This document shows, one piece after another, positions 24,028-40,479 of a stretch of 64,000 bases of DNA. The DNA lies in the IMG/VR virus record IMGVR_UViG_3300031251_000011, positions 1 through 64,000 of that record; one strand, written 5' to 3'. The translations under genes and the position numbers were made by a program. Within the stretch, counting starts at the first letter, position 1. Each line of letters starts with the position of its first letter. The DNA comes from a virus. The notes below the pieces were generated by a model. The model searched no databases, was not told where the DNA came from, and was given only the letters and a program-made list of their open reading frames with translations.

Positions 24028-24039
24028 ATTTCAGCTCCT

Positions 24040-24348: not shown

Positions 24349-24361
24349 AGTGCCTCTCTTT

Positions 24362-25036
24362 CTAGGCCGTTGCGGCCTGCAGCGCCTTGTCGAACAGCTC
24401 CGCGTTGGCGGCGATCTCGTCGGCGTGGTCGAGACCGTTGATGACCTTCCTCGCGTTAACGAAGTCGGTCTCGTCATCGTTGACGTACTCCTCCAGGGCG
24501 TGGCCCGTGAAATCGCCGACGTGGCTGTCGGCGCGCAGCATACCCTCGAACATGACCCACACGGCGACCGGAAGCTCAAGCGCCCGGTCCGGGGTCAGCG
24601 TGAGGTCGATCGGCGCGGAGCCCAGCACCTTCGCCAGCTCATCACCGGGCCTGGCGAGTTCCGCCGACAGCAACGTCCCCATCTTGAGGTAGTTGCTGTA
24701 GTGCGTCAGCTGCACCAGGCCGCGGCCGTAGTACGACTGCCCGGTGAGCGGGTTCGTGACCGCGTACCAGACCCCCTTGAGGCGGTTGCGGGCCTGCAGG
24801 TCCGACGTCGCGAAGGTCTCGCGCACAGGGACCATGGCAACCCCGCACTCACGGTACGGCGTGGCGAGGATGTAAGCGAGCTGCGTGACGGGCCCGACCT
24901 CGTGCAGATCAACGCGGCGCTCCCACTCGTCGAGAATCGCCTCCATCGTGTTGACCTGGCCGCTGTTGAGCCGGCCGCCGAACAGCGACTTGCAGACCCC
25001 GTCGGGGCCGTGGTAGAACTCGGCGCGGTCGATCAT
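24362..25036 (-). CDS. Endolysin, glycoside hydrolase family 19 type
   Basis: QLAYILATPYRE, PVRE, YYGRGLVQLTHYSNY, ARKVINGLD. Confidence 0.92.
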   Translation of the reverse strand: MIDRAEFYHGPDGVCKSLFGGRLNSGQVNTMEAILDEWERRVDLHEVGPVTQLAYILATPYRECGVAMVPVRETFATSDLQARNRLKGVWYAVTNPLTGQSYYGRGLVQLTHYSNYLKMGTLLSAELARPGDELAKVLGSAPIDLTLTPDRALELPVAVWVMFEGMLRADSHVGDFTGHALEEYVNDDETDFVNARKVINGLDHADEIAANAELFDKALQAATA

Positions 25037-25037
25037 G

Positions 25038-25529
25038 TCACTTGCCTCCTCTGAACGCGTTGAACTGAAGTTCCTTGATGTCCTTGGTCTGCTGCTCGTC
25101 GGAGCGCGAGAGAGCGTCGAGGCGGTTGGCCTGCGCGTCGAACCTGCTGTTGAAGAACTGGCTGAGCGACGGTATCTGGAACGTCACGATGGCGTTCAGC
25201 GAGTTCTTGAGATTGTTCATCTCCAGCAGCATGGCCGTGAACGCCTGCGTCTGCCTGTCCTGGGCAACACCCTGCGTCCTGACCGCCTCGCGCAGGTCGT
25301 TCCAGATGAGACCGCCGAGCGCCAGGATACAGAGCATGAGCGTCGGTGTTATGTACGCCATGTTTAGGCGGGCGAGCAGCTTCAGCTCAGGCTTGTCGGC
25401 TGCATTGTTCATGTCACGGGAGCGGTCACGCAAGCGGTTCTCGCGCTCCGCCATGGCGTACGCCTTGACTATGTCTTCCCGCGGCATCGGACCCTCCGTT
25501 CCGCCGCCTTCGGCTGGAAGCTCTGTCAT
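25038..25529 (-). CDS. Single-TM coiled-coil protein of lysis region
   Basis: ITPTLMLCILALGGLIW hydrophobic segment followed by heptad-rich tail. Confidence 0.65.
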   Translation of the reverse strand: MTELPAEGGGTEGPMPREDIVKAYAMAERENRLRDRSRDMNNAADKPELKLLARLNMAYITPTLMLCILALGGLIWNDLREAVRTQGVAQDRQTQAFTAMLLEMNNLKNSLNAIVTFQIPSLSQFFNSRFDAQANRLDALSRSDEQQTKDIKELQFNAFRGGK

Positions 25530-25666
25530 GTTTTCGTCCCACCGCCCGTCCGGGCGGTTTCCGCTTCCGCCAGCTTGGCGTCGATGACGGCTAGCAGCTC
25601 TTTCATGCTCGGGACCTTGAGCGTCTTGAGGATCGGGGGCTCGTGTAGGCGGTGGAGAGGTTTCAT
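25526..25666 (-). CDS. Small hypothetical protein (not in ORF track)
   Basis: MKPLHRLHEPPILKTLKVPSMKELLAVIDAKLAEAETARTGGGTKT*; ATGA overlaps both sides. Confidence 0.5.
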   Translation of the reverse strand: MKPLHRLHEPPILKTLKVPSMKELLAVIDAKLAEAETARTGGGTKT

Positions 25667-26058
25667 TTGACCGCCATCAGGTTGAGCACCTGCGTCTCAA
25701 GGCGCGTGATGCGCTCGCGCGTGACGATGTCGGCCGCCGCCAGCTTCTCCGTCGCCGCGCGGCTCTCCGCGGCCAGCAGCCCCGTGGAGACCTTCAGCTC
25801 AGCGGCCAGCTTCTCCGTCGCCGCGCGGCTCTCCGAGGCCAGGCGGTCCGCCGTCGTGCGGTTCTCCACGGCCAGCACCAGGGCCGCCGTCTGCATCCCC
25901 GTGATCGTGTCCTTGCTGGTGACGACCTGCTGCGTCATGCCGCCCATCTGCTGCGCGATCCAAGCGACGTAGCCGAGCGCGGTCACGACCGCGATCACCG
26001 TGGGCAGGTTGATGACCTGGCTGCTGCCGTTTGAGCTTAACCTCAACTCGTTCGCCAT
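25663..26058 (-). CDS. Single-TM coiled-coil protein of lysis region
   Basis: INLPTVIAVVTALGYVAWIA segment; ends RITRLET; internal repeat. Confidence 0.65.
   Translation of the reverse strand: MANELRLSSNGSSQVINLPTVIAVVTALGYVAWIAQQMGGMTQQVVTSKDTITGMQTAALVLAVENRTTADRLASESRAATEKLAAELKVSTGLLAAESRAATEKLAAADIVTRERITRLETQVLNLMAVK
25739..25835. repeat. 31-bp exact direct repeat (66-bp period) inside CDS
   Basis: GCCAGCTTCTCCGTCGCCGCGCGGCTCTCCG at 25739-25769 and 25805-25835, encoding ESRAATEKLA twice. Confidence 0.9.
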
Positions 26059-26207
26059 GCTGAGCCCCCACCCAAAAGATGTTTGCTGCCACGGTGTCGC
26101 AGGTCGCGCAACGCCGCCGGGCACCGGAAGACTTTCGCCCTCGGCTCCCGGCGACGGCGCCGGCGGCGGGGAGGCAGACCCGCCGCAAGCTCTTAACGGC
26201 GTTTGAG

Positions 26208-28646
26208 CTACGACCGGCCCCGAAGGTCGCGCCAGCCGCAGGTGTGGATGTAGAGAGGCTCGCCGCTGTAGCTCGGGAACCCGACGTATATCCGCGCGGA
26301 CGTGTCCGTCGGCGGACCGATGACAGAGTTCGTCGAGCTTGACCCCTGCGCCGGGTTTCCCTCGTAGTGAGACATGACGGTGGCCAGGAGCGTCGCGCTG
26401 GCTCCTGGGGCGTACTGCACGGCGGCCGTGTTGTTGTTGATGGAGTTGGCTGTTATGACCGTGAACGGCTCGACGACGATACCCACAGGAACCGACAGGG
26501 CTGTCAGCGTGGCTGGCTGGGTCCCTCCCCCTCCGGTAAGGTCCAGGATTTCCAGGCGGTAGAAGTCGTCACCGAACTGCTGGAATGCGACCCAGTGCCC
26601 TGAACCGTCCGTCTGCATGGCGCCAATGCGGCGGTACTGCGTGTAATCGGTCGGCAGGAGCGCGGGGACCACAAAGTTGAGCGACGTGATAACGTCGACG
26701 GCCCGCGTCGAGGGGTTCCGGATCAGATACGCGGCGTACCACGTGCTGTTGGCGATGGACCCCTGGTCCAGCGACCCGTTGCCGGAGCCGGCGGCCCACG
26801 CGTCCGTCGTCTTCGTGTAGGCTGCCACCAGCTGCATGATGACCGTGCTGTCGGTGTCGGCCGCCACGCCCGCCGCGATGCCGAAGACCGCCGAGCCGCC
26901 GGCCGTCGAGAGGTTCAGCCCGTCGAGGTAGCCCACCAGGTCCGTGGCCAGGTTTCCGTTCGCCGGTGGTGTGTTGTTGGAGATGCCCGTCAGCGCCACG
27001 CCGTTGGCGTAGACCACGCCCGCGGTTCCCGCCAGCGCGTTGTCCAGGTGGTTGAATGACTGGCCCGCCGTGCCGCCCGTCGCCGAGGTCGGGTACTCCC
27101 CCTGCCCCGGGTTGACGAAGAACGGGACGCCGGCCTGGCCTGCCGCGATCTCCGCCATCGACACGCCGAGCACCGCCGTGGTCTCAACCTTGACGATCGC
27201 CATCAAAGTAGTAGCGGAGTTCTGCTGGTCGTAAACCATGATCGCGGTGAAGTCGCCGCAGGTCGCCGGGGCCGTGGGCTGGTTGACAGGGGGGGAGCTG
27301 CCGCGGTAGAGCCCGCCGCCGCCGGAGAGGAGCCTGGGCCACAGCGAGCCCGTGGTCGCAGCCGCGGAGCCGATCGCCGTGGGCGCTGACCTGAGGTACG
27401 GAGCGGAGACGCCGAGCGACGCGTCGGGGAGACCCGCCGACAGCCAATACTGCCCTGAGGTTCCGCTGGACGCCGCGAGCGCCACGAGAGAACCGTTGAT
27501 GACCTCGGCGTCGAGAGCGAAGGTCGACGCGCTGAGGGTGGACGAGCCCATCCCGGAGGCGGAGGCGTAGGTGGCGCCCGCAGCCGTGAGACCCAGCAGG
27601 TACAGACCGTTGCCGGCGGAGCTGAAGTACGCCAGCCAGAAGTAGATGCCGTCGTTCGTGAGCTTGACCTGCGGGTAGGTTCCCGCGTTCAGCGTGTTCG
27701 CCGCGCTGAACGGTGTCCCCTGGACGACGCCCGCGTTCGTGTAGACGGCGCAGATCAGGTTGGTGCCGTTGGCTTCCGCGACCGCGAAGTAACCCGTCAT
27801 GACGCTGATCTCAAGCAGGCCGGCCACGGAGGTGCTGTCGACGCTGGTAGGTCCCGCCACGTTGACACCTCCCACCGTGAACACGGTGAAGCTCGTCCCG
27901 CCGAACGAGTTCGCTGCCATCGTGCCGCGGTAAGCGCAGACCAGGTTGCCGCTTGAGAGCTGCCCCAGCTTCAGCGTCTCGACCGCCGCCGATCCTGTGA
28001 GGGCCTGCACGGACGTGGCGCCCAGCACGGGAGAGCCGGCGTTGCTGTACGTGACCAGGTTGATCGCCGTGGCGGCGCTGCTCTGGAAGACGACGGCGAA
28101 GCCGCCGCCGCTGAGGGCGACCGCCGAGTGGTAGACGACGTTCGTCGACGCGCGCTCGGTGGCGAACGCTGAGGGGCCAGCGATCAGCGTGAGCATCGAG
28201 TCGAAGATCACGAAGCACAGGACACCGGCGCTGCGCGCGTAGACACAGCAGAAGTTCCCGTTGGACAGCTGGAACAGGATCGGCGTGTTGACCGTTGTGG
28301 CGGTAGAGTCCAGCACGGCTGACACCAGGCTCGCGCCGAGAGGGCTCCGCTTGTACGCCACCAGGCGCCCGCTTCCGTTCGTGCCCATAATGTAAACGTT
28401 GCCAAGCCTGTCGCGGGCGACAGCCTGGCGCGCGGAGCCGGTCACGGCGAACGACGCGACAGCGCTGGGAGACAGCAGCGTCTGGGCCTCGGCGTTGACC
28501 GCGTAGTCGATGGTGGCGACGGGCCACGCCTCGGAGCCGAGGCCACCGACCAGGACCAGGTCGCCCTGCGCGACAGCGGAGCTTCCCGCCGGGACCTTGA
28601 GCTGCTGGCCGTTCTTGACGAAGTTGGAAGTTCCCTGAGCGCTCAT
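26208..28646 (-). CDS. Tail fibre / receptor-binding protein with propeller-like repeats
   Basis: Repeated LSxGN/GF + hydrophobic strands; C-terminal fibre module GSGNGSLD...TWY.AYLI...YTQYRRIG; position after baseplate. Confidence 0.7.
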   Translation of the reverse strand: MSAQGTSNFVKNGQQLKVPAGSSAVAQGDLVLVGGLGSEAWPVATIDYAVNAEAQTLLSPSAVASFAVTGSARQAVARDRLGNVYIMGTNGSGRLVAYKRSPLGASLVSAVLDSTATTVNTPILFQLSNGNFCCVYARSAGVLCFVIFDSMLTLIAGPSAFATERASTNVVYHSAVALSGGGFAVVFQSSAATAINLVTYSNAGSPVLGATSVQALTGSAAVETLKLGQLSSGNLVCAYRGTMAANSFGGTSFTVFTVGGVNVAGPTSVDSTSVAGLLEISVMTGYFAVAEANGTNLICAVYTNAGVVQGTPFSAANTLNAGTYPQVKLTNDGIYFWLAYFSSAGNGLYLLGLTAAGATYASASGMGSSTLSASTFALDAEVINGSLVALAASSGTSGQYWLSAGLPDASLGVSAPYLRSAPTAIGSAAATTGSLWPRLLSGGGGLYRGSSPPVNQPTAPATCGDFTAIMVYDQQNSATTLMAIVKVETTAVLGVSMAEIAAGQAGVPFFVNPGQGEYPTSATGGTAGQSFNHLDNALAGTAGVVYANGVALTGISNNTPPANGNLATDLVGYLDGLNLSTAGGSAVFGIAAGVAADTDSTVIMQLVAAYTKTTDAWAAGSGNGSLDQGSIANSTWYAAYLIRNPSTRAVDVITSLNFVVPALLPTDYTQYRRIGAMQTDGSGHWVAFQQFGDDFYRLEILDLTGGGGTQPATLTALSVPVGIVVEPFTVITANSINNNTAAVQYAPGASATLLATVMSHYEGNPAQGSSSTNSVIGPPTDTSARIYVGFPSYSGEPLYIHTCGWRDLRGRS

Positions 28647-29803
28647 TATTCCATGCTCCAGTTTCCGGATTTCAGCGAGAACGTGACGCCCTCAAGCCAG
28701 TTGACGTCGAGCGGGAAGCTCCCGGAGAAGCCCTCCACAGTGGCGCCGTTGGGGTCGATCGTGCAGGCGTTCTTCGCGAGCGCGCCGCCCACGTCCTTGA
28801 TCGTGTAGTTGTCCCCGAGCGCGCCGCCGCTCTGGAACTGGAACGTGAAAGGGCCGCCCGTCGTGTCGACGTGGTAGACGCCCGGCGCGTAGAGGCCGGA
28901 GGAGTTCACGTAGACCGCCTGCGCCGAGAACACGACGGGTACGGGCGCCTGCGTGATGAGAAAGCCCGTTGAGCCGTCAGAGGTGATCTTGGCCGACTGA
29001 TTAGGGCGGAGAATTTGTGTGCCGGCGGCGATGCCGTTCAGCGTGGTTCCCCCCGGCGCGGTTATCGTGAGGATGGCTGTGGTGTCGACGTTCTGTTCCG
29101 TGATGCTCCAGCCGTTCTGCACCGTGCTCGCGTTGGGCAGGTGGTCTACCATCGCTGTTCCGGAGTTCGAGCGGGCCACGGTGCTTCCCGTGTTGACGGC
29201 CGTGGAGTTGAAGGTGTTCCCCGTGACGTAGGCGATGGCACTCAGCGTTGTCAGGGGGAGCCACGCGGCTCCGGCCGTGTTGCCCGTCGCGTAACACCAC
29301 CAGAAAGACAGACCCACGTAGTCCCAGCACAGCGTTGGCGCGGACGACCCCGTCGCTTGCTGGCCGGCGACGTGCCCGTTCGGGTTCCCGGCGTAGACCT
29401 GGTCGATCGACACCAGCGACCAGCCCGCGCCGCCCGTGTCGGGGTCCGTGACGTTGTCGTCGACCTTGGACACCCACCAGCCCAGCCCGCTCGCGGCAAC
29501 AAGCGCGGCTCCCATCGGGTAGCCCCCGATCTCCGCCGAGAACGACGCGTCATAGCCCACGGGTCCACCCACCCCCTGCCACCTGCTCCACTGCGTGACG
29601 AGACGCAGGATACCGTTCATGTCCTGCCCGAAGGGCGGGATGCCGCCGGAGGCCAGGGGGCGGAAGTTGTCGGGCGGGAAGCCACCCTGCATGGACGCGC
29701 GGCCCGGAACCGACGGCGCGGGGGGTATGGTGTCGACGTACTGCGGGTCCGCGTCCGACGCGAACGGGACCGGGACCAGCGCGGGGAGGTCTATGTATTT
29801 CAT
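28646..29803 (-). CDS. Tail fibre protein (baseplate-anchored)
   Basis: N-terminal GRAS...GFPP...GGIPPFGQDMNGIL...IGGYPMGA...DDNVTDPD typical of Bcep781-like fibres. Confidence 0.85.
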   Translation of the reverse strand: MKYIDLPALVPVPFASDADPQYVDTIPPAPSVPGRASMQGGFPPDNFRPLASGGIPPFGQDMNGILRLVTQWSRWQGVGGPVGYDASFSAEIGGYPMGAALVAASGLGWWVSKVDDNVTDPDTGGAGWSLVSIDQVYAGNPNGHVAGQQATGSSAPTLCWDYVGLSFWWCYATGNTAGAAWLPLTTLSAIAYVTGNTFNSTAVNTGSTVARSNSGTAMVDHLPNASTVQNGWSITEQNVDTTAILTITAPGGTTLNGIAAGTQILRPNQSAKITSDGSTGFLITQAPVPVVFSAQAVYVNSSGLYAPGVYHVDTTGGPFTFQFQSGGALGDNYTIKDVGGALAKNACTIDPNGATVEGFSGSFPLDVNWLEGVTFSLKSGNWSME

Positions 29804-29805
29804 GG

Positions 29806-30453
29806 CTAAAGCACCTGGTAGCTGACGGCCACGCCGGTCGGACGCGGCAGGACGTTTGAGCTTGTTATCAGGGCGACCTCCACCGGGGTCGGCACGAAGC
29901 CGAAGGTGTACGTCATCGTCATGTCCTGGTTGTCTACGACGTAGCACGGCCCCCGCAGCGGGAAGAGGAGCTGCAGCACGGCGTTGATGCCAGGCGTCGA
30001 GCCGAACGTTATGTTCGCGAGCGCTTTGGCCAGGATGAGCACCCTGTAGGCGCCGTCGGAAAGCTCGAAGCTCTGCGTGGGGCCGCCGCCCGCGTAGAAC
30101 GGCGACACGTTGAACGGGTCGTAGTCCGGGCCGCCCTCCTCGAAGCCGAGGAAGCGCGATGACACCGACAGCGTGCGCTTGATGACGACGATGCGGCCCC
30201 ACACGTCGAGCCCGTAGCCCTCCGCCGTGTCGATGTTCCACAGCTTGTCGTAGAACGCGTCGACGTCCGTCTTCTGTTCCATCGCCGCGGCGAAGCTGGC
30301 GATGATACCGAGGATGCGGCCGCTGTTGGCGTACTGGCTTATCACCGTGGCCTGCCAGTCGTAGAACTGGCCGCCGATGGCGAAGTCGCCGATGCCGCCC
30401 TCCCCTATGCCGCCTGACTGTTTCGGATGGGGGAAGTAGGGGAGGTCGGTCAC
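29806..30453 (-). CDS. Baseplate wedge protein (DUF2612-like)
   Basis: ISQYANS, WNIDTAEGYGLDVWGRIV, YRVLILAKALANI, LPRPTGV. Confidence 0.88.
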   Translation of the reverse strand: MTDLPYFPHPKQSGGIGEGGIGDFAIGGQFYDWQATVISQYANSGRILGIIASFAAAMEQKTDVDAFYDKLWNIDTAEGYGLDVWGRIVVIKRTLSVSSRFLGFEEGGPDYDPFNVSPFYAGGGPTQSFELSDGAYRVLILAKALANITFGSTPGINAVLQLLFPLRGPCYVVDNQDMTMTYTFGFVPTPVEVALITSSNVLPRPTGVAVSYQVL

Positions 30454-30462
30454 GTCGGCGCC

Positions 30463-30702
30463 TTACTTCTTGGGCGCTTCAGACGGTGTCTTCAGCTTGG
30501 CCACCTCGGCTTTGAGTTCGGCGTTCTCCTTGCGCTTGGCGACAAGCTCCTCGACAACCTTGTTCAAGGACTCCAAAAGGTGGCGCTGCGATCCTTGGAA
30601 GACGGTGAAGTCTTCGCCCAGCATCTTGATCGGGTCGGGAGCCTCCTGCGCGAATGCCGGGGACGTGACGAGCAGCGCGATGGCGAATGCGATCTTTTTC
30701 AT
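30463..30702 (-). CDS. Small exported coiled-coil protein
   Basis: Signal peptide MKKIAFAIALLVTSPAFA-QE; C-terminal heptads ENAELKAEVAKLK. Confidence 0.75.
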   Translation of the reverse strand: MKKIAFAIALLVTSPAFAQEAPDPIKMLGEDFTVFQGSQRHLLESLNKVVEELVAKRKENAELKAEVAKLKTPSEAPKK

Positions 30703-30726
30703 AACTTGGTTCCTGCCTCTTGAGTT

Positions 30727-32094
30727 TTAAGGTATGCAGCCGCTCGGCTCCCCGTTGAGCAGAACCATCCCGGTGATCGGTGGGATGGTTATGACCCCGG
30801 TGAAGCGCGTGCAGTCGCTGCGGTGGTACACGCTCGCCCCTAGGTCGTAGGTGCGCGAGAGCGTGGTAGAAGGGTTGACGAGCGCCAGCAAACTGGCGAA
30901 CGTCCGGTAGTACACGTTTCCTGTCACCGCGTAAGCGCCGCTTGCCACGCCGTGCGTCAGGTAGAACTGCGGCCAGAACGCGGTCGGCGTGTTTTCGTTG
31001 TAGTACCCCGGCCCTCCGGCGGAACCACTGTCAAAATACATCGTCATGTAGGTGTGCGCGTTCTTCAGCAGCAGGTAGCTGGCGGCGGCGTACTCAACCA
31101 CTTCAAAATTGGTGCTCACGCCCGCCTTGGTAAACGACCCGATGGGGCAGATGGAGTTCTCGTCAACGTAGGCGTTCGGCCCGGCCCCGCCGTTCAGGCC
31201 GGTGATGAATGCGATCTTGTTGATCCAGTAGGTGCCTGTCGCTCCTGATCCGTTGTTCGGAGTGCAGGCGGACGGCTGACTGTCTCCGGTGATCCCCTGT
31301 TCGTCGTACCATATGTCGTAAGCGTTCACGAGCCGCGCCGTGTCGGTTAGATTGGCCGCGTCGTAGCTGATGTTGGCCATCGTCGATTTGCCTTGGGTGT
31401 GCGCCCAAGCCGTGACGGCCTGCCCCCAAGCCACGCGGTTGTTTATGAACGTCGCGTCGTTCTGAACGGCTCCGCTGTAAAGCTGAGTCCACGTCCCGCC
31501 GTCTGCCGTGCAGTTGGTCGTGGGAGCTATCGAGCAGATGCCCACCTCATCCCAATCGTTCCGGTCGGTGACGTTGTCGATGCTGAACGATTGGTAGCCC
31601 GCGCTCAAGATGGGCGCGTAGACGTTCGTCTCCAACCATGACTGAACGGTCACGTTGCTTATGTCGAGAGGCACCCAAGTTGTGTCCCCGAACTGGTAAG
31701 CGGGCGTCACCTGATCCGAAGTGTAGATGATCCACGTCGGATGGTTGGTTCTGAACCAAGCCAAAGGGCACCCGCCGCTGGGTACCCCGCAGGCTTTTAG
31801 AATGGTGATGCCTGTGCCGTAAGGCGATGCGTATGTCGGTACACGGTTGACCGCCGTGTACCCGCTCGAAAAAACGCTCGACGGAAGTATGAGCACGTAA
31901 CCCTGCGCCGAGTTGGGTCGGTTGTCCCAAATTATGTCGTAGGTGCTCAACTTGTTCTGATACTGCGAGAGCGTGTAATCATAGACGAACTCGCCTGCGC
32001 GTCCCACCCTCGTTGACACGTCGGCCGGGAGGGACTGCGCGAGGGAGACGCTCGTCCACAGAAGCGCAATGAGACCAAGTGTGAATTTTCCCAT
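30727..32094 (-). CDS. Exported protein, possible TIM-barrel glycoside hydrolase
   Basis: Signal peptide MGKFTLGLIALLWTSVSLA-QS; HPTW...LDISN..VQSW...GYQSFSIDN, WYDE, YYRTF..LLALVNP pattern; eight Cys. Family assignment tentative. Confidence 0.5.
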   Translation of the reverse strand: MGKFTLGLIALLWTSVSLAQSLPADVSTRVGRAGEFVYDYTLSQYQNKLSTYDIIWDNRPNSAQGYVLILPSSVFSSGYTAVNRVPTYASPYGTGITILKACGVPSGGCPLAWFRTNHPTWIIYTSDQVTPAYQFGDTTWVPLDISNVTVQSWLETNVYAPILSAGYQSFSIDNVTDRNDWDEVGICSIAPTTNCTADGGTWTQLYSGAVQNDATFINNRVAWGQAVTAWAHTQGKSTMANISYDAANLTDTARLVNAYDIWYDEQGITGDSQPSACTPNNGSGATGTYWINKIAFITGLNGGAGPNAYVDENSICPIGSFTKAGVSTNFEVVEYAAASYLLLKNAHTYMTMYFDSGSAGGPGYYNENTPTAFWPQFYLTHGVASGAYAVTGNVYYRTFASLLALVNPSTTLSRTYDLGASVYHRSDCTRFTGVITIPPITGMVLLNGEPSGCIP

Positions 32095-32097
32095 GGT

Positions 32098-35000
32098 CTA
32101 ATTCCCAATCACGGTCCACTGAACGCCGTTGTAGACGGCGAGCGCATAGGCCGCGCCGCCGAGCGCTAGAGCCGAACCGATGGCAGGCGCGGTCGCCGTG
32201 TTGACCGAGATGATCGTGCCTGTCAGAGCGGCGGCAACTATGGTGGCGTTGGGAGTGTGCACGATGCCCGTTGACACGTTCACCGCTCCGCTGCCCTTCG
32301 GCGTCAGGCTGATGCTGATGTTGCTGTCGCTGCCTGTGGCCAGCAGTTCAACCGGATTAGCGGTGACGTTGCCGTTGATCGCCCAGTAGTTGACCATTGC
32401 CCCGGCCGCACCATGCACGCCGAAGCGCGCGATGTACTGCTGGATATTGTTCGTCATTACATCGACGCCGGTTGCACCGTTCCCTGACAGTTGCATGTTC
32501 AGGTTGGTAGAGCCCTGCGCGACAATCGACGGTGTGTTGTTGGACGCCACAAGAATGTAGTTGTTGCTGCTTCCACCCGGCCCGATCTGGAAGGCGGTCT
32601 GCAGGGCGTTGACGGTCGTGCCGGTGGAGCCTTGGTTAGAGGTTTTGAAGAAGATGCTGCCGCCGTAGCCCGTGCCTTTGCCCTGCCCAGCCGCGATGGT
32701 GATGCTCGCGCCCGCGATGTTGGACGTGCCGCCCGCGAGCACGTTCTGCATGCTGATCGTCTGCGCGACGGGAGCGGTGTCCACGTCCGCCGCACCGAGC
32801 CGCAGGTTGGCAGCAGCGGCCCGTCCCAGCAGAAGGTCGGTGCTGAACAGAAGTTGTGCCGCGCCTGTCGGCAGCGTCACGGTGCTGCTGAACGCCGCCG
32901 CCCCGGTGAAGAACGAGGCCGATGACACCGTCCAAGCCGAGGCGTTGGTCAATCCGTAGTCAAGTTTCGTCACACCGCCAATCTGGAACAGTTGCTTGCC
33001 TGCACCTTTCGTGTTGAAAGTCAACCCAACATCGGTGTCGCTTCCCGCTGCAGCCAGAGTCGGTGATGCAGTGGTCAAGGCGGCCGTCAACGTGAAGTAG
33101 TTTACGCTCGAATTGCCGCTGCTGAAAAAGCGGGCGATGGTGACGTTCGTGAGGTTTGACAGAATATCGACGCCGCTAGTGCCGTTACCCGACAGTTGCA
33201 GGTTCACGTTTGTGGCACCCTGCGCGCTGACAGTCGGCGTGTCGTTGGCATCAAACCGCAGGTAGTACCCAAGCGTGCCCGGCGCTTCAAACTCCGCGAC
33301 ACGTTTGCCGCTCGCCGCTATGTTGACGACAGTAGCGGTACGAAAGTACATGCCGCTCGTCGGATCAGCCAAGGAAGAATAAGGCGGATTGCTGACACTT
33401 CCGGCCAGCAAGAGAGTGGTATTGAACATAGGGGCTGCGGGAGACCCTGTGTTGTTACCGAACACCGACGTTGCCCCGGCGCTCGTGACCGGAGCGACGC
33501 CGCAGTCCTGCACGCCTGTTGCTGTGTAACAGGCGACATTACCGGGAGTGCCGCCGAGAACGGTCGTGGCCACCGTGCTGGTCGCGGCGGGCATCGTGTA
33601 GGTGTACGCGCCGGGCATGGCGAACGTGGTGTTGTACGCGCCCGTCATCGTCAGGTTGCCGCCCAGCGTTATCAGCTTCCCGGCGACGCTGAGATTGACG
33701 GAAGCGTTGATCGTGCCGGCCACGTCCAGTTCAACGGCAGGTGCTTTCGTGAGAATGCCGATCTTGGCAGTCGAGATGGTCGAACCCGTTCCCGTCAGCC
33801 CGGTGCCGTAGATGGCGTTGCCGATGACAAGCTGGCCGTTTGCCGTGGCAGAAGCCAACGCATTGTCGAAGCCGATGGAGATGTTCTGGCTGCCGGTCGT
33901 GAGTTGATTGAGCCCCGCGCTGGATGAAGACGCACCTACAATGACGTTCTGTGCGCCTGTCGTTGCGCCGTAGCCCGCAGCATTTCCCACAAACACATTG
34001 GCTGCCGTACCAGTAGCGATACTGTAGCCCGCCTGCTTGCCAACTAGGGTATTACCTGTCGCCGTGTACGTGCCCCCGACGCCGTAGCCAGCATCGCGCC
34101 CCACCGCAACAGTATCAGTTGATGTCGTGGCGTTATAGAGCGCGTGATCTCCGACTGCGGAATTACCGGCGCCAGTTACGTTATTGATCAAGACTTGATA
34201 GCCGACGCCGGTATTCCCGGAACCGCTAGTCTGGGCCTGCATAGCGGCAAGACCAATACCAACATTTCCATCTCCAGAGACGAGAGCGTAAAGCGCGCGA
34301 CGACCAATCGCTACGACATCGTTTGCCGCCACGAGTGCCGATGCTGCGTCACTGCCAACTGCGGTATTTCGATTGCCACCGGAGACGGCATAAAGCGCAG
34401 AATTACCAAAACCAGTATTCTCGTCGCCGGTGAGTCCAGCCAGCATCGAGTGAGCGCCAACTGCGGTATTGTAGGAGCCGCTGGTATGCTGTTCCATCGT
34501 CGAGTTGCCGACCCCGACGTTAAAGATGCTGGCACCAGTCAGCGCGCCCATGCTCTGGTAGCCAATGGCAGTATTGGCGTCGCCGCCGTTCATAACTTGG
34601 AGTGCTAGCGGCCCGATGGCGATAGATGCGCTATCGTGCACTGCCGCATTAAAAGCGTTGTAACCAATGGCGATGCTCTTACAGCCGTTAGTCAGGGACG
34701 AGGCGGCATTCTTTCCGATGCCGATAATCCACAGCCCGTAACTGCCAGAGCATTCCCCATGACCGCCGGTCGACGAGGACGTGAGAGAAGGCACTATGGG
34801 AGCGAGAGCAAAACCGCTGCTGAACGTCGGCACGTCAGCGACAGTTATGTTACCGTTCTGGTACAGGTACGCGGCAAGGTTGAGCGTGCCGCTACCTTCG
34901 CTCCCGCCCGTCGGCGTGCCCAGCGTCAGGCTGGTGCCTGTGGCAGCGCCGAGGGACGGCGTCGTGAAGGATGGCGACGTCTGCATGGCGACCACGGTGC

Positions 35001-35625
35001 CCGTTCCCGTGATTGTGTACTCGCCCAAGACGGAACCGTTCACGCGGAGAACGCGCGTGTCGGTCCCCCCTGTCACCGTCGTGCTTCCGACCGTGATGCC
35101 TGCCGCGGTCGGGTTGACCCACGTCCCGTCGCCCCGCAGGAACGTCGAGGAGCTGGCGCCGCTGCCGGAGTTGAAGCGGTTGACGGAGACCGTGCCCGTG
35201 AGGTTGGCGGCGTCGGTCCCCGTGGCGAACGCGCCGAACAGGACGCCGTTGGTCTTCGTGACGGAGATGGCGCCGACGTTGGACAGCGTGGCGTCGCCGG
35301 AGAGGGCGCGCGCGGTGGCAATGCCCGAAGCGTTGCCGACGAAGAGCGCGCCCGGCGTGAGCGCGTTCGACATGCCGCCCAGGTTGGTGAGGGCCGCGGC
35401 AGCGGAAGTCGCGCCGGTGCCGCCGTAGACGATCGGGATGCCGCCCGTGTAATAGCCGACCTTGTTGGTCCACTGGCGCTGCCACTCCTGCGGCGTGGGA
35501 ACGTAGCCCAGCGACCAGTTGGGACCGAAGAACGGACCGTTGACCGAGGGCGTCGGCTGCGCGGCCGCGCCGCCCGCCAGGAGCAGGAGCGCGGAGGTGA
35601 GGGAAAGGAGGAGCTTCTTAATCAT
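32098..35625 (-). CDS. Large tail-fibre/adhesin-like protein with N-terminal signal peptide and 14-aa NTAxG beta-roll repeats
   Basis: MIKKLLLSLTSALLLLAGGAAA-Q; GGTGATSAAAALTNLG and TFLRGDGTW fibre motifs; many N[TV]x[IV]G repeats; duplicated C-terminal module. Confidence 0.8.
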   Translation of the reverse strand: MIKKLLLSLTSALLLLAGGAAAQPTPSVNGPFFGPNWSLGYVPTPQEWQRQWTNKVGYYTGGIPIVYGGTGATSAAAALTNLGGMSNALTPGALFVGNASGIATARALSGDATLSNVGAISVTKTNGVLFGAFATGTDAANLTGTVSVNRFNSGSGASSSTFLRGDGTWVNPTAAGITVGSTTVTGGTDTRVLRVNGSVLGEYTITGTGTVVAMQTSPSFTTPSLGAATGTSLTLGTPTGGSEGSGTLNLAAYLYQNGNITVADVPTFSSGFALAPIVPSLTSSSTGGHGECSGSYGLWIIGIGKNAASSLTNGCKSIAIGYNAFNAAVHDSASIAIGPLALQVMNGGDANTAIGYQSMGALTGASIFNVGVGNSTMEQHTSGSYNTAVGAHSMLAGLTGDENTGFGNSALYAVSGGNRNTAVGSDAASALVAANDVVAIGRRALYALVSGDGNVGIGLAAMQAQTSGSGNTGVGYQVLINNVTGAGNSAVGDHALYNATTSTDTVAVGRDAGYGVGGTYTATGNTLVGKQAGYSIATGTAANVFVGNAAGYGATTGAQNVIVGASSSSAGLNQLTTGSQNISIGFDNALASATANGQLVIGNAIYGTGLTGTGSTISTAKIGILTKAPAVELDVAGTINASVNLSVAGKLITLGGNLTMTGAYNTTFAMPGAYTYTMPAATSTVATTVLGGTPGNVACYTATGVQDCGVAPVTSAGATSVFGNNTGSPAAPMFNTTLLLAGSVSNPPYSSLADPTSGMYFRTATVVNIAASGKRVAEFEAPGTLGYYLRFDANDTPTVSAQGATNVNLQLSGNGTSGVDILSNLTNVTIARFFSSGNSSVNYFTLTAALTTASPTLAAAGSDTDVGLTFNTKGAGKQLFQIGGVTKLDYGLTNASAWTVSSASFFTGAAAFSSTVTLPTGAAQLLFSTDLLLGRAAAANLRLGAADVDTAPVAQTISMQNVLAGGTSNIAGASITIAAGQGKGTGYGGSIFFKTSNQGSTGTTVNALQTAFQIGPGGSSNNYILVASNNTPSIVAQGSTNLNMQLSGNGATGVDVMTNNIQQYIARFGVHGAAGAMVNYWAINGNVTANPVELLATGSDSNISISLTPKGSGAVNVSTGIVHTPNATIVAAALTGTIISVNTATAPAIGSALALGGAAYALAVYNGVQWTVIGN

Positions 35626-37484
35626 ACCAGGTTCACCTCTATGCAGGCCGCCGTAACCGTCGGGGCCTGGTTTATACGAACGTTAGTCGCGGTCTGGTCC
35701 GGGACCACAGCCTGGAACGCCTCAAGCGCGACCTTCTGCGCGGCGCTTACCGAGTAGCGCCCCGCGGCCCCCGATGTGCCTGAGAGCTGCGCCGTGATCG
35801 TCGTGCCTTCGTTGATGTTGCCGTCAGCGTCGAACAGGAACTGCCCGACCGCGAGCGTCCCCGACGTGACCGTAGCGACCACAGCTACGGCGCTCGTGGT
35901 TGTCAGGGCAGCGGCTGACGCCGTCGTCGCCACGCTGGTCGTGTAATCCCCTGTCCCTCCGGTCGTGCCGCTGTCCTGAGAGAGGATCGTCGTTCCCGAA
36001 GGGGCGCCGGTTCCGACGACTGTGTCGCCGACCGACACGTAGCCGGTCAGAGAGCTGATCGTAAGAGTTGTGCCGACCGCTGTTCCCGTGAACGACGCGC
36101 CAATGGCCAGCGTCCCGGTCGCGGTCGGGAGGTTCTCCGTGCCGAGCAGCAGCGAGACGATGTTCGCCCACGAGCCAAGCGCGGCGACAGGGGGATAGAA
36201 GCGGCTGGCATAGACCGGGTAGCCGATCCTGGCGCGCTGGCCTCCGTCCGCCCCGGCGAAGGCCGCTATGACGGCAGCCTGCACTTGAGCCTCGAAGTCC
36301 GCGGGGACCTCGGGGCTGTTGGCCAGGTTAACGCGGAACACGAACGGCAGAGACGACGGTCGCTCGAACTTCACCGTGTACGCGGCGCCGGGCGGCGGCA
36401 CCTGCGTGTTGAGGTCGTAGACGGTGACGGTCGTGTTGCCGTCGTACCAAGCGCAGCCCGGCGACTTCTTCGACCAGGCCGCGGTCGCCACAGCGTCATC
36501 GGTCCCGCCCACGGCCGCGACGTACAGGCAGTTCGGCCCGAGCACGACGCCGCCGAGGTTCATCTCCGAGGCCGCGACGGTCTGCGACACGCTAACGGTC
36601 CAGTCGTTCCCGCTTATGAAGCTGACGATCGTTGTGCCGTTGGCGACCGGGACGTTGGAGGCTGACGAGCCGGTGAGCGTTTGCCCCGCCGCGATGAAGC
36701 CGCTGACAACGCTCGTGACCGTGAGCGTGGTTCCGCTTATCGAGCCCTGGACGACGCCCGTCGGCGTGTAGCCCACCTCATACGAGTTCGGGTTGTCGTT
36801 TACGTAAGCGTCGAGCACGCCGCTCACGTTCAGCACCGCGCCGTAGACCGACGGGATGAAACCGACCGTGTTGAGCGCCACCGACAGCTCGCGCCGGGTC
36901 TCGAACGCGGACCTGCTCTCCACCGCGTTGCCGAGCACGCCGTCGGTCGGGTTGTTGATGCTGTCCCAGCCCGGTATGGACCTGTAGACCCGGTTCAGCG
37001 TGTCGGCGGGACAGCTGACCGGACCCGTGACCTGACAGGCGAAGTCCAGGGTGATCGAACCACCAACCGGTATCACTCCGCCCGACACGGCGTAGTAGAG
37101 GTTGCCGTCAGAAGCTATGGCGAGGGCGCCCGGCGGTATCGGCGTGTTGGCCAGACCGATGCAGAGGCACGACGCCACGGTGCTCTGCGCGGGAAGCCGG
37201 GTCATGAAATAGATGCGGCCGATCGCGTCCTGCAGGCGGCCCGTGGAGAACGCGGGGTCCACTCCGTTGGCCAGCGCGCAGAACGTGTCGTTCGCGTCGC
37301 CGACTATCGCCGACTCGCTGGCGACCAACTGCCCCTGCGGCGTGGGGTTGGTGACCGTGCCAAAGTTAAGCTCCACCCCAAACGCCTGGTTCCAGTCGAG
37401 CTTCAGGCCCGCCAGAACGTCCGGCTCGGTCGGAGGCACGAACCCCGTGGCGGTGAACGTCGGCTTCGGAACGTTGGTTGTCAT
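35622..37484 (-). CDS. Baseplate J-like protein with three inserted accessory domains
   Basis: TPQGQL, DPAFSTGRLQDAIGRIYF, IPGWDSINN, ES...FETRR. Confidence 0.9.
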   Translation of the reverse strand: MTTNVPKPTFTATGFVPPTEPDVLAGLKLDWNQAFGVELNFGTVTNPTPQGQLVASESAIVGDANDTFCALANGVDPAFSTGRLQDAIGRIYFMTRLPAQSTVASCLCIGLANTPIPPGALAIASDGNLYYAVSGGVIPVGGSITLDFACQVTGPVSCPADTLNRVYRSIPGWDSINNPTDGVLGNAVESRSAFETRRELSVALNTVGFIPSVYGAVLNVSGVLDAYVNDNPNSYEVGYTPTGVVQGSISGTTLTVTSVVSGFIAAGQTLTGSSASNVPVANGTTIVSFISGNDWTVSVSQTVAASEMNLGGVVLGPNCLYVAAVGGTDDAVATAAWSKKSPGCAWYDGNTTVTVYDLNTQVPPPGAAYTVKFERPSSLPFVFRVNLANSPEVPADFEAQVQAAVIAAFAGADGGQRARIGYPVYASRFYPPVAALGSWANIVSLLLGTENLPTATGTLAIGASFTGTAVGTTLTISSLTGYVSVGDTVVGTGAPSGTTILSQDSGTTGGTGDYTTSVATTASAAALTTTSAVAVVATVTSGTLAVGQFLFDADGNINEGTTITAQLSGTSGAAGRYSVSAAQKVALEAFQAVVPDQTATNVRINQAPTVTAACIEVNLV

Positions 37485-37487
37485 CGC

Positions 37488-37847
37488 CTAGAACCTCGCC
37501 TGCGCCTTGGCGCTGGTGATCTCGTCAGTTATCTGGACCTGCCCCGTGACCTCGCGGTTGGCGACCGAGTCGATCACGCAGAGCGCGGATATTACCCCCG
37601 GCACCGTCAGGGCAGCCTGCTCGAACTTGGCTTTCATGAGCGCCAGCGGCGGGAGGTGGCCCAGTATCTCCTGCCAGTAAGGGATGCCCTGGTTCACGTC
37701 GTACTGCAGCTCGCCGCGGAACAGCCTGATGGCGCTCGCCGCGTCCTGCGCCTGGCTGTAGGGGTCGCTGGCGAGCGCCAGGTTGCCGGCCTGGTCCAGC
37801 ACGAGGTCCCAGGTGTCGACGTCGAGGAGCAGCGTTTTCATCTTCAC
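37488..37847 (-). CDS. Baseplate wedge / sheath initiator
   Basis: TLLLD..TWDL.LD..GNLA...AQDAASAIRLFRGE..YD...GIPY; synteny. Confidence 0.8.
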   Translation of the reverse strand: MKMKTLLLDVDTWDLVLDQAGNLALASDPYSQAQDAASAIRLFRGELQYDVNQGIPYWQEILGHLPPLALMKAKFEQAALTVPGVISALCVIDSVANREVTGQVQITDEITSAKAQARF

Positions 37848-38692
37848 GTCCCCGGGGTCGGCGGGTTGGTCGGAACTTCCGTGTCGCCGTGGCTGTCGTT
37901 GCCCTGCGTGTGCGTGTGCGTGGTGAGCCCGACGCCGCCAGGGCCGTTGCCCTCCACGGTGCCGCCGAACACGGCGCCTCCGGAGACGTCTAGCGCGCCG
38001 TTTATCTTGAAGCTCGTCGTCGTGGCTTCGATCATCCCCGGCTTCAGGTTCATAATGTTGCCGTTACAGTCCTCCAGCTTCATACCTTCCGAGCTGGTCG
38101 TGATCTTGTTCCCGAACTTGTCGGTCGTGACCACGCCGCTCTCGCCGGTCTCGGTGCTGTTGCCCTGGTTGTCCAGGAGCACGTAGCCTTTCGCCTTGAA
38201 CCTGACATACTGATCCGAGACACCGTTGAGAACCGGCCCCACGTACACGCCGTCGGCCGCGTCGTAGCGCCGGCTTGAGCCCGGCGTCGCCGCGTCGCGG
38301 TTGGCCTTGACCGACGAGATGTCGCGGTCGGCGCAGGCCATAGCCCCGATGTCGCCCGCCTTCGGGTCGCATATGACGGCGCTCCCGCCGCCCTGCTGCC
38401 TGGTGAACGGCACACCGTAGATGATGCCGTGCGGGGTGGCCTGGTTCGCGCCGTCCACCTGCGACACAAGCGGCTGCACGTCCACGAAGCCGGTCGGCCC
38501 GACGACGCCCGTGTCGTCCGGAGACACAGGTGACATGTTCGAGTCGTAGACCGCGATGACTTTCACGATCTTCGTCGTAGCTACCTGCGCGATCGCCTGA
38601 GCTATCTGGAACGCCCTGACGTTGAACTCCGACGAGGTGTCGAACGGACCCTGCTGGCCTACTCCCGCCGCTGGCGTGACTTCGTCTGTCAT
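37844..38692 (-). CDS. Baseplate central spike (gp138/gpV-like)
   Basis: VDVQPLV, DPKAGDIG...ADRDIS, C-terminal THTH metal-binding tip. Confidence 0.88.
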   Translation of the reverse strand: MTDEVTPAAGVGQQGPFDTSSEFNVRAFQIAQAIAQVATTKIVKVIAVYDSNMSPVSPDDTGVVGPTGFVDVQPLVSQVDGANQATPHGIIYGVPFTRQQGGGSAVICDPKAGDIGAMACADRDISSVKANRDAATPGSSRRYDAADGVYVGPVLNGVSDQYVRFKAKGYVLLDNQGNSTETGESGVVTTDKFGNKITTSSEGMKLEDCNGNIMNLKPGMIEATTTSFKINGALDVSGGAVFGGTVEGNGPGGVGLTTHTHTQGNDSHGDTEVPTNPPTPGT

Positions 38693-39576
38693 CGTGTCAG
38701 CGGCAGCGGCGTGTCAGGGTCGTAAGCCGAGATCGTCGACTGCCACTTGCCGTTGGGCGTCCGGCTGTCGAGCAGATGGTCCACCGCGCCGACCGCCCAC
38801 ACGCCGTTGGCGGGGGTGAGAGTGCTGACCACCTTGATCTTGCCGCCGAACCGGATAGCGGGGTTGAACGACGTCTGCAGCATGAGACCCTGCGACGTGA
38901 AGGCCGGGTATCCGATCATCCCCGTGTCGGGCGCCACAACTATGACCTGTCCCTTCCTGGCCCTGTTCTTCGGCCATACCGACAGGATGCCGTTGTCTAT
39001 GATCCAGTCGATGTTCGCGGCGTCGACGGCCCGCTGCGCCTGGCTCCGGTACGACCCCGAGAAGTACGGGTTGGAGAGTATCACGGAGACGCCGTTACCC
39101 TCGAAGACCAGCCCCATCTGTTTCGCGAGGTACGCCAGCACCGTGGAAACGTCGGTCGCGCCCTTGAAGCTCGTCGCCTTGGCGTTCACGACGTCCTCGG
39201 CCAGACCCGCGCTCGCGTCCACGCGGAACGCCACGTCCGGCGCGCCCTGCGCGTCGAAGTACGCGTTGAATATGGTCCCCTGAAAAACGGTGAACATACC
39301 TTCGGAGTCGCCGGCCGACAGAACCACGGTGTCTCTCGGCACCGTGCTGATTTTCATTCCCAGCGTGGACAGCTGGTTCATCTGCGACAGGGTCATCCCG
39401 TACACGGTTATCTGCGCGGTGCTCTTCATGACGCCGCCGGCCTTGACTATCCTGGACGATATGCGCAAGCCCTTCAGCGTGATCGTGTTGACCTTGGTGC
39501 CCTTGAAGTTCACCGCGCTGCCGTTCCTCGGCGCCAGCGTGAACGTGATGTCGAGCAGCTTCGCCGTGAAGCTCAT
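38689..39576 (-). CDS. Baseplate hub protein
   Basis: AQITVYGM, VFQGTI, TGMIGYP, NPAIRFGG, NGKW; synteny. Confidence 0.82.
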   Translation of the reverse strand: MSFTAKLLDITFTLAPRNGSAVNFKGTKVNTITLKGLRISSRIVKAGGVMKSTAQITVYGMTLSQMNQLSTLGMKISTVPRDTVVLSAGDSEGMFTVFQGTIFNAYFDAQGAPDVAFRVDASAGLAEDVVNAKATSFKGATDVSTVLAYLAKQMGLVFEGNGVSVILSNPYFSGSYRSQAQRAVDAANIDWIIDNGILSVWPKNRARKGQVIVVAPDTGMIGYPAFTSQGLMLQTSFNPAIRFGGKIKVVSTLTPANGVWAVGAVDHLLDSRTPNGKWQSTISAYDPDTPLPLTR

Positions 39577-39890
39577 GACTCAAGCGCCGTGAGGTCGGCG
39601 GAGTTCAGGTAGACCAGCTGAAACCTGGTCCCAAGCTCCGCGAAGTACGGGTTGTCACGCGCGCCGCTGGAGTCGTAGAACACCAGGTCACCCACGAGCC
39701 CGAGGTACGCGTCGCGCACGATGCGGTTCATGTTCTGGCAGATCACGAGCCCGACTATCTCGACGTTCTCCACCTGCACGTTGATGAACAGCCCGCTCGC
39801 GAGCTGCCGCAGCGTCAGGACGACCTGCTGGTCGGCGAGGATCACGCCGAACGTCTGCGCGGGGGTTGCGCGGAGCGGGATCAGCTGCAT
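39573..39890 (-). CDS. Small baseplate protein
   Basis: MQLIPL...PAQTF...YLG..GDLVF.D...LGTRFQLVY; synteny. Confidence 0.78.
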   Translation of the reverse strand: MQLIPLRATPAQTFGVILADQQVVLTLRQLASGLFINVQVENVEIVGLVICQNMNRIVRDAYLGLVGDLVFYDSSGARDNPYFAELGTRFQLVYLNSADLTALES

Positions 39891-39894
39891 GGCG

Positions 39895-40479
39895 TCACGG
39901 GGCGTTGAAGGCTGCGCTGATGATCGACTGCTGGCTCGCCGTCGTATCTTTTGCCTGCACCTGGCCCCCGTCCTGCGTCGCGGCCCCGCTGGGCGCCGCC
40001 GTGTCGGTCGTTGCGACGGTCGCGTTCTCTCTGATCTCCGTCAACCACACGGCCACGGTTATCAGGCCGGCGCCGTTCACGGCGGTTCGCCTGTAATCGT
40101 AGTGCATGATGTTGACGCTGGTGTAGGTCTTCTCCGGCGTCACGACGTCGTACTTCTTGAGGTCCCCGGCCACCTGGTCGATGGAGGCGAGCAGGTGCTG
40201 ACGGTTCCTGAAGCTGCCGCCCGAGCTGAACGTGATGCGGGCGGAGAACGGCGTGTCGACCTTGTCGTAGCTCTCGAACGCCCCCTGTTCCATCGGGTAG
40301 TCCGCGACGGTCCACTCCTGCTTGTACTCGAAGTTCACGACGTTGTCGGCGACCACGACCGACTCGCCGCTGTCGTTGAAGATACCCCACAGCGGTTCGA
40401 TGATACCGAACGCGGCGAGGTCCCGCTGGATTATCGTCGGGCCGCCGCCGAAGCCGAAGACCGTCGGGAGACTGGCCAC
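39895..40479 (-). CDS. Tail tube initiator / Dit-like baseplate protein
   Basis: WGIF, DYPMEQGAFESYDKV, YDVVTPEKTY; follows tape measure. Confidence 0.8.
   Translation of the reverse strand: MASLPTVFGFGGGPTIIQRDLAAFGIIEPLWGIFNDSGESVVVADNVVNFEYKQEWTVADYPMEQGAFESYDKVDTPFSARITFSSGGSFRNRQHLLASIDQVAGDLKKYDVVTPEKTYTSVNIMHYDYRRTAVNGAGLITVAVWLTEIRENATVATTDTAAPSGAATQDGGQVQAKDTTASQQSIISAAFNAP

Follow-up and report, generated by a model that had tools for sequence, protein, structure and literature searches.

The stretch analysed here, called the window, is the first 64 kb (positions 1 to 64,000 of IMG/VR virus record IMGVR_UViG_3300031251_000011) of the genome of an uncultured tailed phage from soil, 75,764 bp (~75.8 kb) long and assembled as a single contig. 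Between the genes for baseplate protein J and a DUF2612 wedge protein lie three minus-strand genes, encoding a signal-peptide-bearing tail-fibre-family protein of 1175 amino acids (F1175; 32098..35625), a predicted secreted glycoside-hydrolase-like enzyme with a TIM barrel, of 455 amino acids (E455; 30727..32094), and a small signal-peptide protein of 79 amino acids (C79; 30463..30702). These open reading frames (ORFs) and their coordinates are exactly as claimed in an earlier note made from the sequence alone. Comparison with homologues gives good support to the prediction that the periplasm is the destination of all three late proteins and that the two containing cysteines, F1175 and E455, fold there. 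We propose that the three genes form an accessory cassette, inherited within the late baseplate operon, whose products would work outside the cytoplasm. At a little short of even confidence, we tentatively favour a free exported set that would bind and cut polysaccharide of the envelope or matrix and be released when the cell lyses. Assembly of tailed phages is, in textbook accounts, wholly cytoplasmic, and to our knowledge the tail fibres they describe are without export signals; here a true fibre-family protein appears with a working-looking Sec signal that has been kept through the divergence of a whole phage clade.

Predicted export signals and gene starts

Signal peptides were called by a heuristic that looks for a basic n-region, an uncharged hydrophobic core of ~10 to 15 residues, A/S-x-A and then Gln, with no lipobox Cys. 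The N-termini of F1175, E455, and C79 all pass and end, in Sec fashion, in A-x-A↓Q (the arrow marks the predicted cut), as expected from the proposal in the earlier note that each begins with a Sec-type signal peptide followed by Gln. The predicted signal peptides span amino acids 1 to 22 in F1175 (MIKK..AAA↓Q; 35560..35625, minus strand), 1 to 19 in E455, and 1 to 18 in C79, and the first of these is backed, beyond the heuristic, by its conservation among homologues and by the absence of any other start. Five of the ~95 ORFs of the 75.8-kb genome pass, the remaining two being a spanin lipoprotein and a 101-amino-acid early protein, and a run of three such genes has a p of ~0.007. The cleavage motif is conserved in the F1175 family: in a 12-sequence alignment, Ala occupies positions -3 and -1 in ≥90% of sequences and Gln at +1 is invariant, and the signal properties together with A-x-A↓Q are kept in ~30 clusters while the sequence drifts.

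It is very unlikely, in our judgement, that these hydrophobic N-termini do not work as export signals or that the true starts lie downstream of them, which would leave F1175 an ordinary cytoplasmic fibre. Internal starts are possible in E455 (GTG at codons 26 and 30) and in C79 (ATG at codon 27), but codons 2 to 60 of the F1175 gene contain no ATG, GTG, or TTG; any product with the conserved N-terminal motif of F1175 must therefore carry the hydrophobic leader, and a downstream start for this protein is ruled out. The ATG of the gene overlaps the stop codon of J (ATGA, 4 nt), and a strong Shine-Dalgarno sequence, GAGGTG (35634..35639, minus strand), lies 8 nt 5' of it and favours the start that includes the signal peptide. 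The conservation of A-x-A↓Q despite sequence drift also speaks against a non-working leader, as does the family of E455, nearly all of whose homologues keep a signal peptide directly before a conserved mature N-terminus.

The cysteine content of fibre-like homologues points the same way. We compared 198 such proteins from two homologue searches, 93 of which pass the signal test and 105 of which are leaderless. The signal-bearing proteins contain 0.63 Cys per 100 amino acids, and, where Cys occurs at all, its number is even in 78% of them (binomial p 2e-7); the signal-less proteins contain 0.25 Cys per 100 amino acids and are even in 48% of cases, so that the density is 2.5x higher where a leader is present (Mann-Whitney p 1e-9). 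Since both the excess and the even-number bias occur only with a leader, they suggest an oxidizing compartment, as predicted for export, and argue against a leader that does not function. In F1175 itself, Cys residues form local pairs at 292/315 and 699/708, which are the paired cysteines remarked on earlier. The earlier proposal of export and disulfide formation in the periplasm thus draws support from comparison (the conserved A-x-A↓Q, the lack of an alternative fibre start, and cysteine parity), whereas the chaperone role that it gave to C79 is without support. Cleavage at A-x-A↓Q, the disulfides, and a polysaccharide target are our inferences.

Family membership and architecture of F1175

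Judged by its relatives, F1175 is a true tail-fibre-family protein, and its description as fibre-like holds up. Amino acids 296 to 512 match phrog_4636 (tail spike, E 1.6e-22) and phrog_6002 and phrog_23837 (virion structural protein), and in tblastn searches amino acids 250 to 660 match proteins annotated as tail fibres or spikes, the fibres being from marine and enteric phages. Homologues that share the F1175 N-terminus carry Collar, Peptidase_S74, or pectate-lyase-type domains, and the sister protein in the related locus L002 matches Pfam Collar at E 1e-16. The motifs GYVPT (amino acid 40), GGTGATSAAAALTNLG (amino acid 68), and FLRGDGTW (amino acid 162), which had suggested a fibre, are present.

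The mature protein begins with a conserved N-terminal module (amino acids 23 to 130; 35236..35559, minus strand; NGPxxGPNWxxGYVPTxxEW..NKV..GGTGAT..NLG) that is found in ~30 clusters at 50% identity. A HMMER search with F1175 residues 1 to 130 over 1.84 billion representatives returned 525 proteins. The ~30 clusters align from residue 1, with the basic start, the hydrophobic core, and A-x-A↓Q followed by the consensus NGPxYxPNWxxGYVPTxxxWxxxWSNKxDY..GGTGAT..NLG, and their members range from 204 to 1516 amino acids and have unrelated C-termini. The same motif also occurs leaderless, at the extreme N-terminus of proteins of other uncultured phages whose later parts match PHROG tail-fibre families. 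The GC content at third codon positions (GC3) of the F1175 gene is 0.91 to 0.94 in the first 200 codons, as in the rest of this phage, and 0.48 to 0.69 in codons 300 to 600, with a break after ~codon 200; this profile indicates that the leader and N-terminus are native and that the distal part was swapped in. Swapping of distal parts is usual in receptor-binding proteins.

Farther along, a series of 17-residue repeats (N-T-A-V-G...; amino acids 351 to 505; 34111..34575, minus strand; GC3 0.48 to 0.69) overlaps the tail-spike PHROG match. These had been taken for YadA-like repeats of 14 residues, which they are not: the period is 17, and Pfam YadA_head and Hep_Hag give no match even at E 10. 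Tandem Repeats Finder detected no repeats at the DNA level. The C-terminus consists of two homologous, soluble-looking modules of ~115 amino acids, the first at amino acids 762 to 876 (32998..33342, minus strand) and the second at amino acids 1000 to 1113 (32287..32628, minus strand), which were recognized by local self-alignment (score 193). No Pfam match to a C-terminal beta-barrel membrane anchor was obtained, in line with the earlier remark that the large protein has no autotransporter barrel. The AlphaFold2 model of amino acids 23 to 290 is mediocre (predicted local distance difference test [pLDDT] of 60, and 72 to 84 over amino acids 32 to 132), and a comparison of this N-terminal fold with 48,161 Protein Data Bank (PDB) representatives gave nothing above Z 2.6. 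A PDB sequence search with F1175 found no match, and an Atlas search gave only sub-0.9 viral fibre-like leads.

Inheritance of the cassette

The earlier claim that J and the DUF2612 gene are normally neighbours is borne out by eight related phages in which the two directly adjoin (L043/L045, L044, L048, L049, L051, L052, and Acetobacter phage phiAO1). In P2- and Mu-type phages the genes run in the order W-J-I-H (gp25-like W, gp6-like J, wedge protein I or DUF2612, and fibre H), and the window likewise has a W of 119 amino acids, J, DUF2612, and a fibre. Unlike in that order, a signal-bearing fibre of the F1175 type (type A) directly follows J, with a 4-nt overlap, in the window and in six other loci, that is, in 7/7 loci with visible context (the window, L001/L057, L002, L003, L055, L056, and L058). 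In a tree of J, these loci form one clade (support 99/97), outside which J and DUF2612 are adjacent. Within the clade, L043 is nested as the sister of L001 (91/94) and is cassette-free, which indicates that the cassette is ancestral to the clade and was lost once. The IMG/VR contigs L043 and L045, the closest relatives by DUF2612 (68% identity), have J followed by DUF2612, a 387-amino-acid fibre, and an 820-amino-acid protein, and the cassette is cleanly absent (at ~9992-10001 in L043). As the phage has ordinary signal-less fibres and this nested relative has lost the cassette, the three genes appear to be accessory and not the assembly route of the phage.

Where downstream DNA can be seen in the J clade, one to three further genes, mostly signal-bearing, lie between the fibre and DUF2612. 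The second gene in L002 encodes a signal-bearing SASA-type carbohydrate-esterase-like protein. In L003 the fibre is followed by a 299-amino-acid gene with a hydrophobic, leader-like N-terminus, an 82-amino-acid leaderless gene, and an 87-amino-acid signal-bearing or lipoprotein gene, and in L058 by a gene for a 157-amino-acid signal-bearing protein that is helical by eye. Different fibres are thus accompanied by different enzymes in this slot, as would be expected of equipment tailored to particular glycans.

The arrangement cannot be put down to a chimera or another assembly error, since short contigs from the independent rhizosphere runs X2 and X3 cross the J/fibre, fibre/enzyme, and 79-amino-acid/DUF2612 junctions with zero mismatches. 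Both runs come from other studies and contain the same phage at low depth, with 0 to 1 mismatches in short contigs over window positions 26000-40000; another rhizosphere run with the phage, X1, may be its source sample.

The cassette might also be read as a moron, a lysogenic-conversion insert of foreign DNA with its own expression that alters the surface of the lysogen in the manner of lambda lom and bor. Its GC and GC3 are below those of the flanking genes, a position beside fibre genes is the classic moron site, and E455 is of apparent bacterial origin (see below). However, the cassette genes overlap or abut their neighbours, and no promoter-like or terminator-like site was found around them; the signal peptide and N-terminus of F1175 have the native GC3; and the arrangement has been inherited across the clade. 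In addition, the N-terminal module gave no tblastn match among 50,697 deposited phage genomes, and no relative of F1175 was confirmed in one genome each of 185,579 prokaryote species. The genome looks virulent, at 75.8 kb with its own lysis genes, which does not suit a prophage gene, and we consider the moron reading close to refuted. Lambda Lom and Bor and T5 Llp are likewise phage proteins with signal peptides; their genes lie close to those of tail fibres and often have promoters of their own, and the products, small lipoproteins or outer-membrane proteins, act in the host envelope. F1175 differs from them in its 1175 amino acids, in its translational coupling to J, and in having no promoter or terminator of its own. 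The deposited phage genomes also contain no DNA nearly identical to that of the window.

Several of the outgroup phages carry a second, type-B, signal-bearing fibre-like protein (M..AQ↓SSPNLITGQVPTAAQWNSYF..K.D) after the ordinary fibre, at 11874-14162 in L044, where another leader-bearing gene comes next, at 11801-15895 in L046, and at 12615-14693 in L047. A tblastn search of the deposited phages with the type-B module gave two marginal matches. Phage phiAO1 (L053, LC644971), the nearest cultured relative by baseplate J (50% identity), encodes at the end of its tail module an 820-amino-acid protein, PhiAO1_380 (11345-13807), with a signal-peptide-like N-terminus (MSPLFKTRFLLSLCSGVVMLAGAEA..). 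Baseplate J is 552 to 621 amino acids long in the signal-bearing-fibre clade versus 393 to 482 in outgroup phages.

E455, a probable captured glycanase

E455 has 34 homologues at 45 to 65% identity, and six Cys residues are invariant in the family, E455 itself having eight. Its AlphaFold2 model (pLDDT 92, predicted template modelling score 0.90) is a (beta/alpha)8 TIM barrel with a C-terminal beta-sandwich, and the best Foldseek matches are GH168 endo-1,3-fucanases (E 2.7e-11, probability 1.00, template modelling scores of 0.54 to 0.67), although identity to solved structures is only 10 to 13%. All 32 of 32 family members compared with Pfam match GHL15 (best E 3.6e-10), and 10 match GH114; E455 itself scores E 0.14 and 12.5 bits against GHL15, below the cut-off of 27. 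The residues D144, D173, D260, D264, and E265 are invariant acidic positions of the family. Fold (GH168) and family (GHL15) therefore agree with the earlier impression of a second protein with eight Cys that resembles a glycoside hydrolase. E455 shares the barrel and beta-sandwich with GHL15, GH114, and GH168 proteins and differs in being phage-encoded.

Bacterial homologues at 46% identity, in a Reyranella metagenome-assembled genome (MAG) and an alphaproteobacterial MAG, lie in polysaccharide loci, next to genes for a Wza-like Poly_export/SLBB exporter, a UDP-glucose dehydrogenase, glycosyltransferases, an asparagine synthase, and a carbamoyltransferase. A scan of IMG/VR found no E455 homologues. 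We read E455 as a soluble periplasmic glycanase that was probably captured from bacteria and is not a part of the virion. The earlier suggestion that this enzyme joins the particle at lysis seems unlikely, because E455 does not differ in length or mature N-terminus from its homologues in bacterial polysaccharide clusters and has no docking domain.

C79, the small third protein

The mature part of C79 is helical and contains no Cys; the assignment of the gene as a signal-bearing one depends on the ORF and the heuristic. No homologue was found, and no Pfam, PHROG, or NCBIfam family, including tail-fibre assembly chaperones of the Tfa, gp38, or gp57A kind, matched above threshold; the sub-threshold matches are of the coiled-coil type (DivIC and FtsL). 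L003 and L058 have small signal-bearing proteins at the corresponding place, but these show no similarity to C79. With neither a homologue nor a family above threshold, the idea that C79 is a fibre chaperone finds no support.

A free exported set or a virion fibre

We propose that all three products are exported by Sec and would be cut after A-x-A, leaving an N-terminal Gln that probably cyclizes, and that F1175 and E455 would then form disulfides in the periplasm, as their cysteine statistics suggest. The signal peptide and N-terminal module of F1175 would be native to the phage lineage, and a distal glycan-binding or glycan-cutting part would have been swapped in. E455 would be a soluble glycoside hydrolase from bacterial extracellular polysaccharide (EPS) or capsule loci that has kept its signal peptide since it would fold only in the periplasm, and C79 may be a small periplasmic helical partner. 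The set would recognize and degrade polysaccharide of the host envelope or matrix, first from the periplasm and then, after lysis, as free proteins; such degradation would aid the escape of progeny and their reaching of neighbouring cells. We favour this reading because the enzyme changes from fibre to fibre, because the phage has ordinary fibres as well, and because one relative has lost the cassette.

Several points weigh against a free set. The N-terminal module is the most conserved part of F1175, and a free exported protein has no obvious need of it; leaderless proteins with this motif at their start are identified as tail-fibre proteins by the PHROG matches of their later parts; and the position of the fibre gene, always directly after J with a 4-nt overlap, is more what one would expect of a virion part. 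F1175 has no detected enzymatic domain, and proteins released by lysis do not strictly need a signal peptide. The cleavage, localization, and disulfides of the cassette proteins are, moreover, what we infer from comparison.

The same points raise the serious, though on balance doubtful, possibility that F1175 is an accessory virion fibre made as a secreted, disulfide-folded periplasmic protein. After export, F1175 would trimerize and form disulfides. Only when holin lesions in the inner membrane gave it access to the finished baseplate, built in the cytoplasm, would its N-terminal module attach it there beside J, in a short interval that closes as the spanins rupture the outer membrane; E455 would remain soluble. 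This would suit a tail-fibre-family protein whose homologues have Collar and S74 domains and whose N-terminal motif is matched by the very beginning of leaderless PHROG tail-fibre proteins. Among ~30 clusters whose C-termini have been exchanged, this module is conserved most, which resembles the usual pairing of a docking end with a variable receptor end, and the gene follows J in 7/7 loci of a well-supported J clade. In lambda-type lysis, large holin lesions precede rupture of the outer membrane, and the signal-less GH19-like endolysin candidate and spanin-like genes of this phage (described below) would imply the same sequence of events. On the other hand, ordinary fibres exist, and the nested L043 lives without the cassette. 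The N-terminal motif is also found in differently built phages, for instance between terminase and portal in L006/L012, so it may be a generic fibre start and not a baseplate-specific dock. The deposited phage genomes include no cultured member of the clade, and no docking partner was identified. Our literature search found no paper describing signal-peptide-bearing tail fibres or extracytoplasmic assembly of a tailed-phage part, and papers on phiCbK and 7-7-1 mention signal peptides only in other contexts.

The one experimental hint that we found for leader-bearing proteins in tailed-phage particles, and a point in favour of a virion fibre, comes from the cultured Cellulophaga podovirus phi18:3 (NC_021794; Pachyviridae). 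Its gp085, gp086, and gp087 are three adjacent large proteins with signal-peptide-like N-termini ending ..SQ/AQ↓, and in GenBank they carry the annotation of virion structural or tail proteins "based on experimental MS/MS proteomics" (MS/MS, tandem mass spectrometry). The likeness to the cassette lies in the leader-like N-termini and the annotation, the record being silent on leader removal and on the position of the proteins; unlike the cassette phage, phi18:3 is a podovirus of a Bacteroidota host, gp085 to gp087 have few Cys (0, 1, and 3), and a relation in sequence is not to be expected. No paper discussing the signals of these three proteins was found.

The earlier note had also offered, as an alternative to joining the virion, that the proteins act on the infected cell, and we consider action on the infected-cell surface or its glycans at least as likely as joining the virion. 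In a stricter form, which we think improbable, the exported fibre would bind an envelope glycan and the enzyme would trim it, masking the surface or receptor so that progeny or superinfecting phages fail to adsorb to the cell or its debris, analogous in effect to T5 Llp. All three proteins are apparently addressed to the envelope, and the companion enzymes are glycan-active by fold or family. The mosaic adhesive trimer (MAT) fibres of Bdellovibrio bacteriovorus, moreover, are an example of signal-bearing, phage-like trimers that a Gram-negative cell displays on its surface (Caulton et al. 2024, PMC10769870). Against masking, F1175 has no detectable similarity to the phage's own 385- and 812-amino-acid tail proteins and is therefore no decoy with their specificity; its late expression with the baseplate leaves little time for exclusion; and Pfam detected no outer-membrane translocation domain. 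The idea that F1175 shares its specificity with the phage's own fibres accordingly found no support.

MAT fibres are also the nearest cellular parallel to the F1175 family. They have a signal peptide, a constant, beta-rich N-terminal domain of ~130 amino acids, a phage-like trimer, and exchangeable C-terminal tips, some with S74 chaperone domains (PMC10769870). Compared by architecture only, the two share the same modular logic; they differ in that MATs are cellular genes of a predator that displays them on its own surface, whereas F1175 belongs to the baseplate operon of a virulent-looking phage.

Implications

Tail fibres and exported phage proteins are, each in itself, known kinds. What this case adds is their setting in a proteobacterial-type, virulent-looking myovirus clade of the rhizosphere, with clade-level inheritance and one loss, together with the signal-less counterparts of the same N-terminal module, the cysteine-parity test, and the apparently captured EPS-type glycanase. 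If F1175 joins the virion, it would do so by an unrecognized extracytoplasmic assembly step, a mechanism new in kind, and part of the host range would be set by the Sec and Dsb machinery of the host, which would matter for phage engineering, for the expression of receptor-binding proteins, and for genome-based prediction of host range. If F1175 stays free, as we tentatively favour, phages would export fibre-like glycan binders and captured glycanases as soluble tools, which would be relevant to biofilm and rhizosphere ecology and to depolymerase discovery. Either way, annotation pipelines that call such genes "tail fibre" miss the compartment.

Neighbouring genes and lysis block

The minus-strand tail genes run from the tape measure through several baseplate genes to the gp25-like 119-amino-acid protein, J, the cassette, DUF2612, the 385-amino-acid fibre, and the 812-amino-acid protein, and the sheath of the phage is of the DUF3383 type. 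Upstream of the cassette, baseplate J (620 amino acids; 35622..37484, minus strand) matches PF04865 (E 2e-7) and phrog_6 (E 5e-40). Downstream, the DUF2612 wedge protein (215 amino acids; 29806..30453, minus strand) matches PF11041 (E 2e-51) and phrog_587. It is followed by the ordinary signal-less tail fibre of 385 amino acids (28646..29803, minus strand; phrog_12796 tail fiber protein, E 5e-32), whose start is fixed, and by the signal-less distal tail protein of 812 amino acids (26208..28646, minus strand), to which the 820-amino-acid gene of L043/L045 is homologous.

Adjoining the tail genes on their 3' side is a lysis block (23332-26124, minus strand). It encodes an 83-amino-acid hydrophobic protein that is a holin candidate, a 146-amino-acid lipobox lipoprotein that is o-spanin-like, a 224-amino-acid signal-less protein with a sub-threshold GH19 match that is an endolysin candidate, and a membrane-anchored protein of ~131 amino acids that is i-spanin-like and whose tail looks helical and repetitive by eye. 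A lipobox lipoprotein of this kind is typical of an outer-membrane spanin and indicates a Gram-negative host.

By the heuristic, the sole further non-lysis candidate for export in the genome is the 101-amino-acid early-region protein (11166-11471, plus strand), which has a clean signal peptide (MRALRL..APAIA↓QD) and no Pfam match. The 812-amino-acid distal tail protein matches no Pfam or PHROG family above threshold. Mtd is the variable receptor-binding protein of Bordetella phage BPP-1, and the distal tail protein has a weak, sub-threshold match to its second domain (PF21916, E 0.022).

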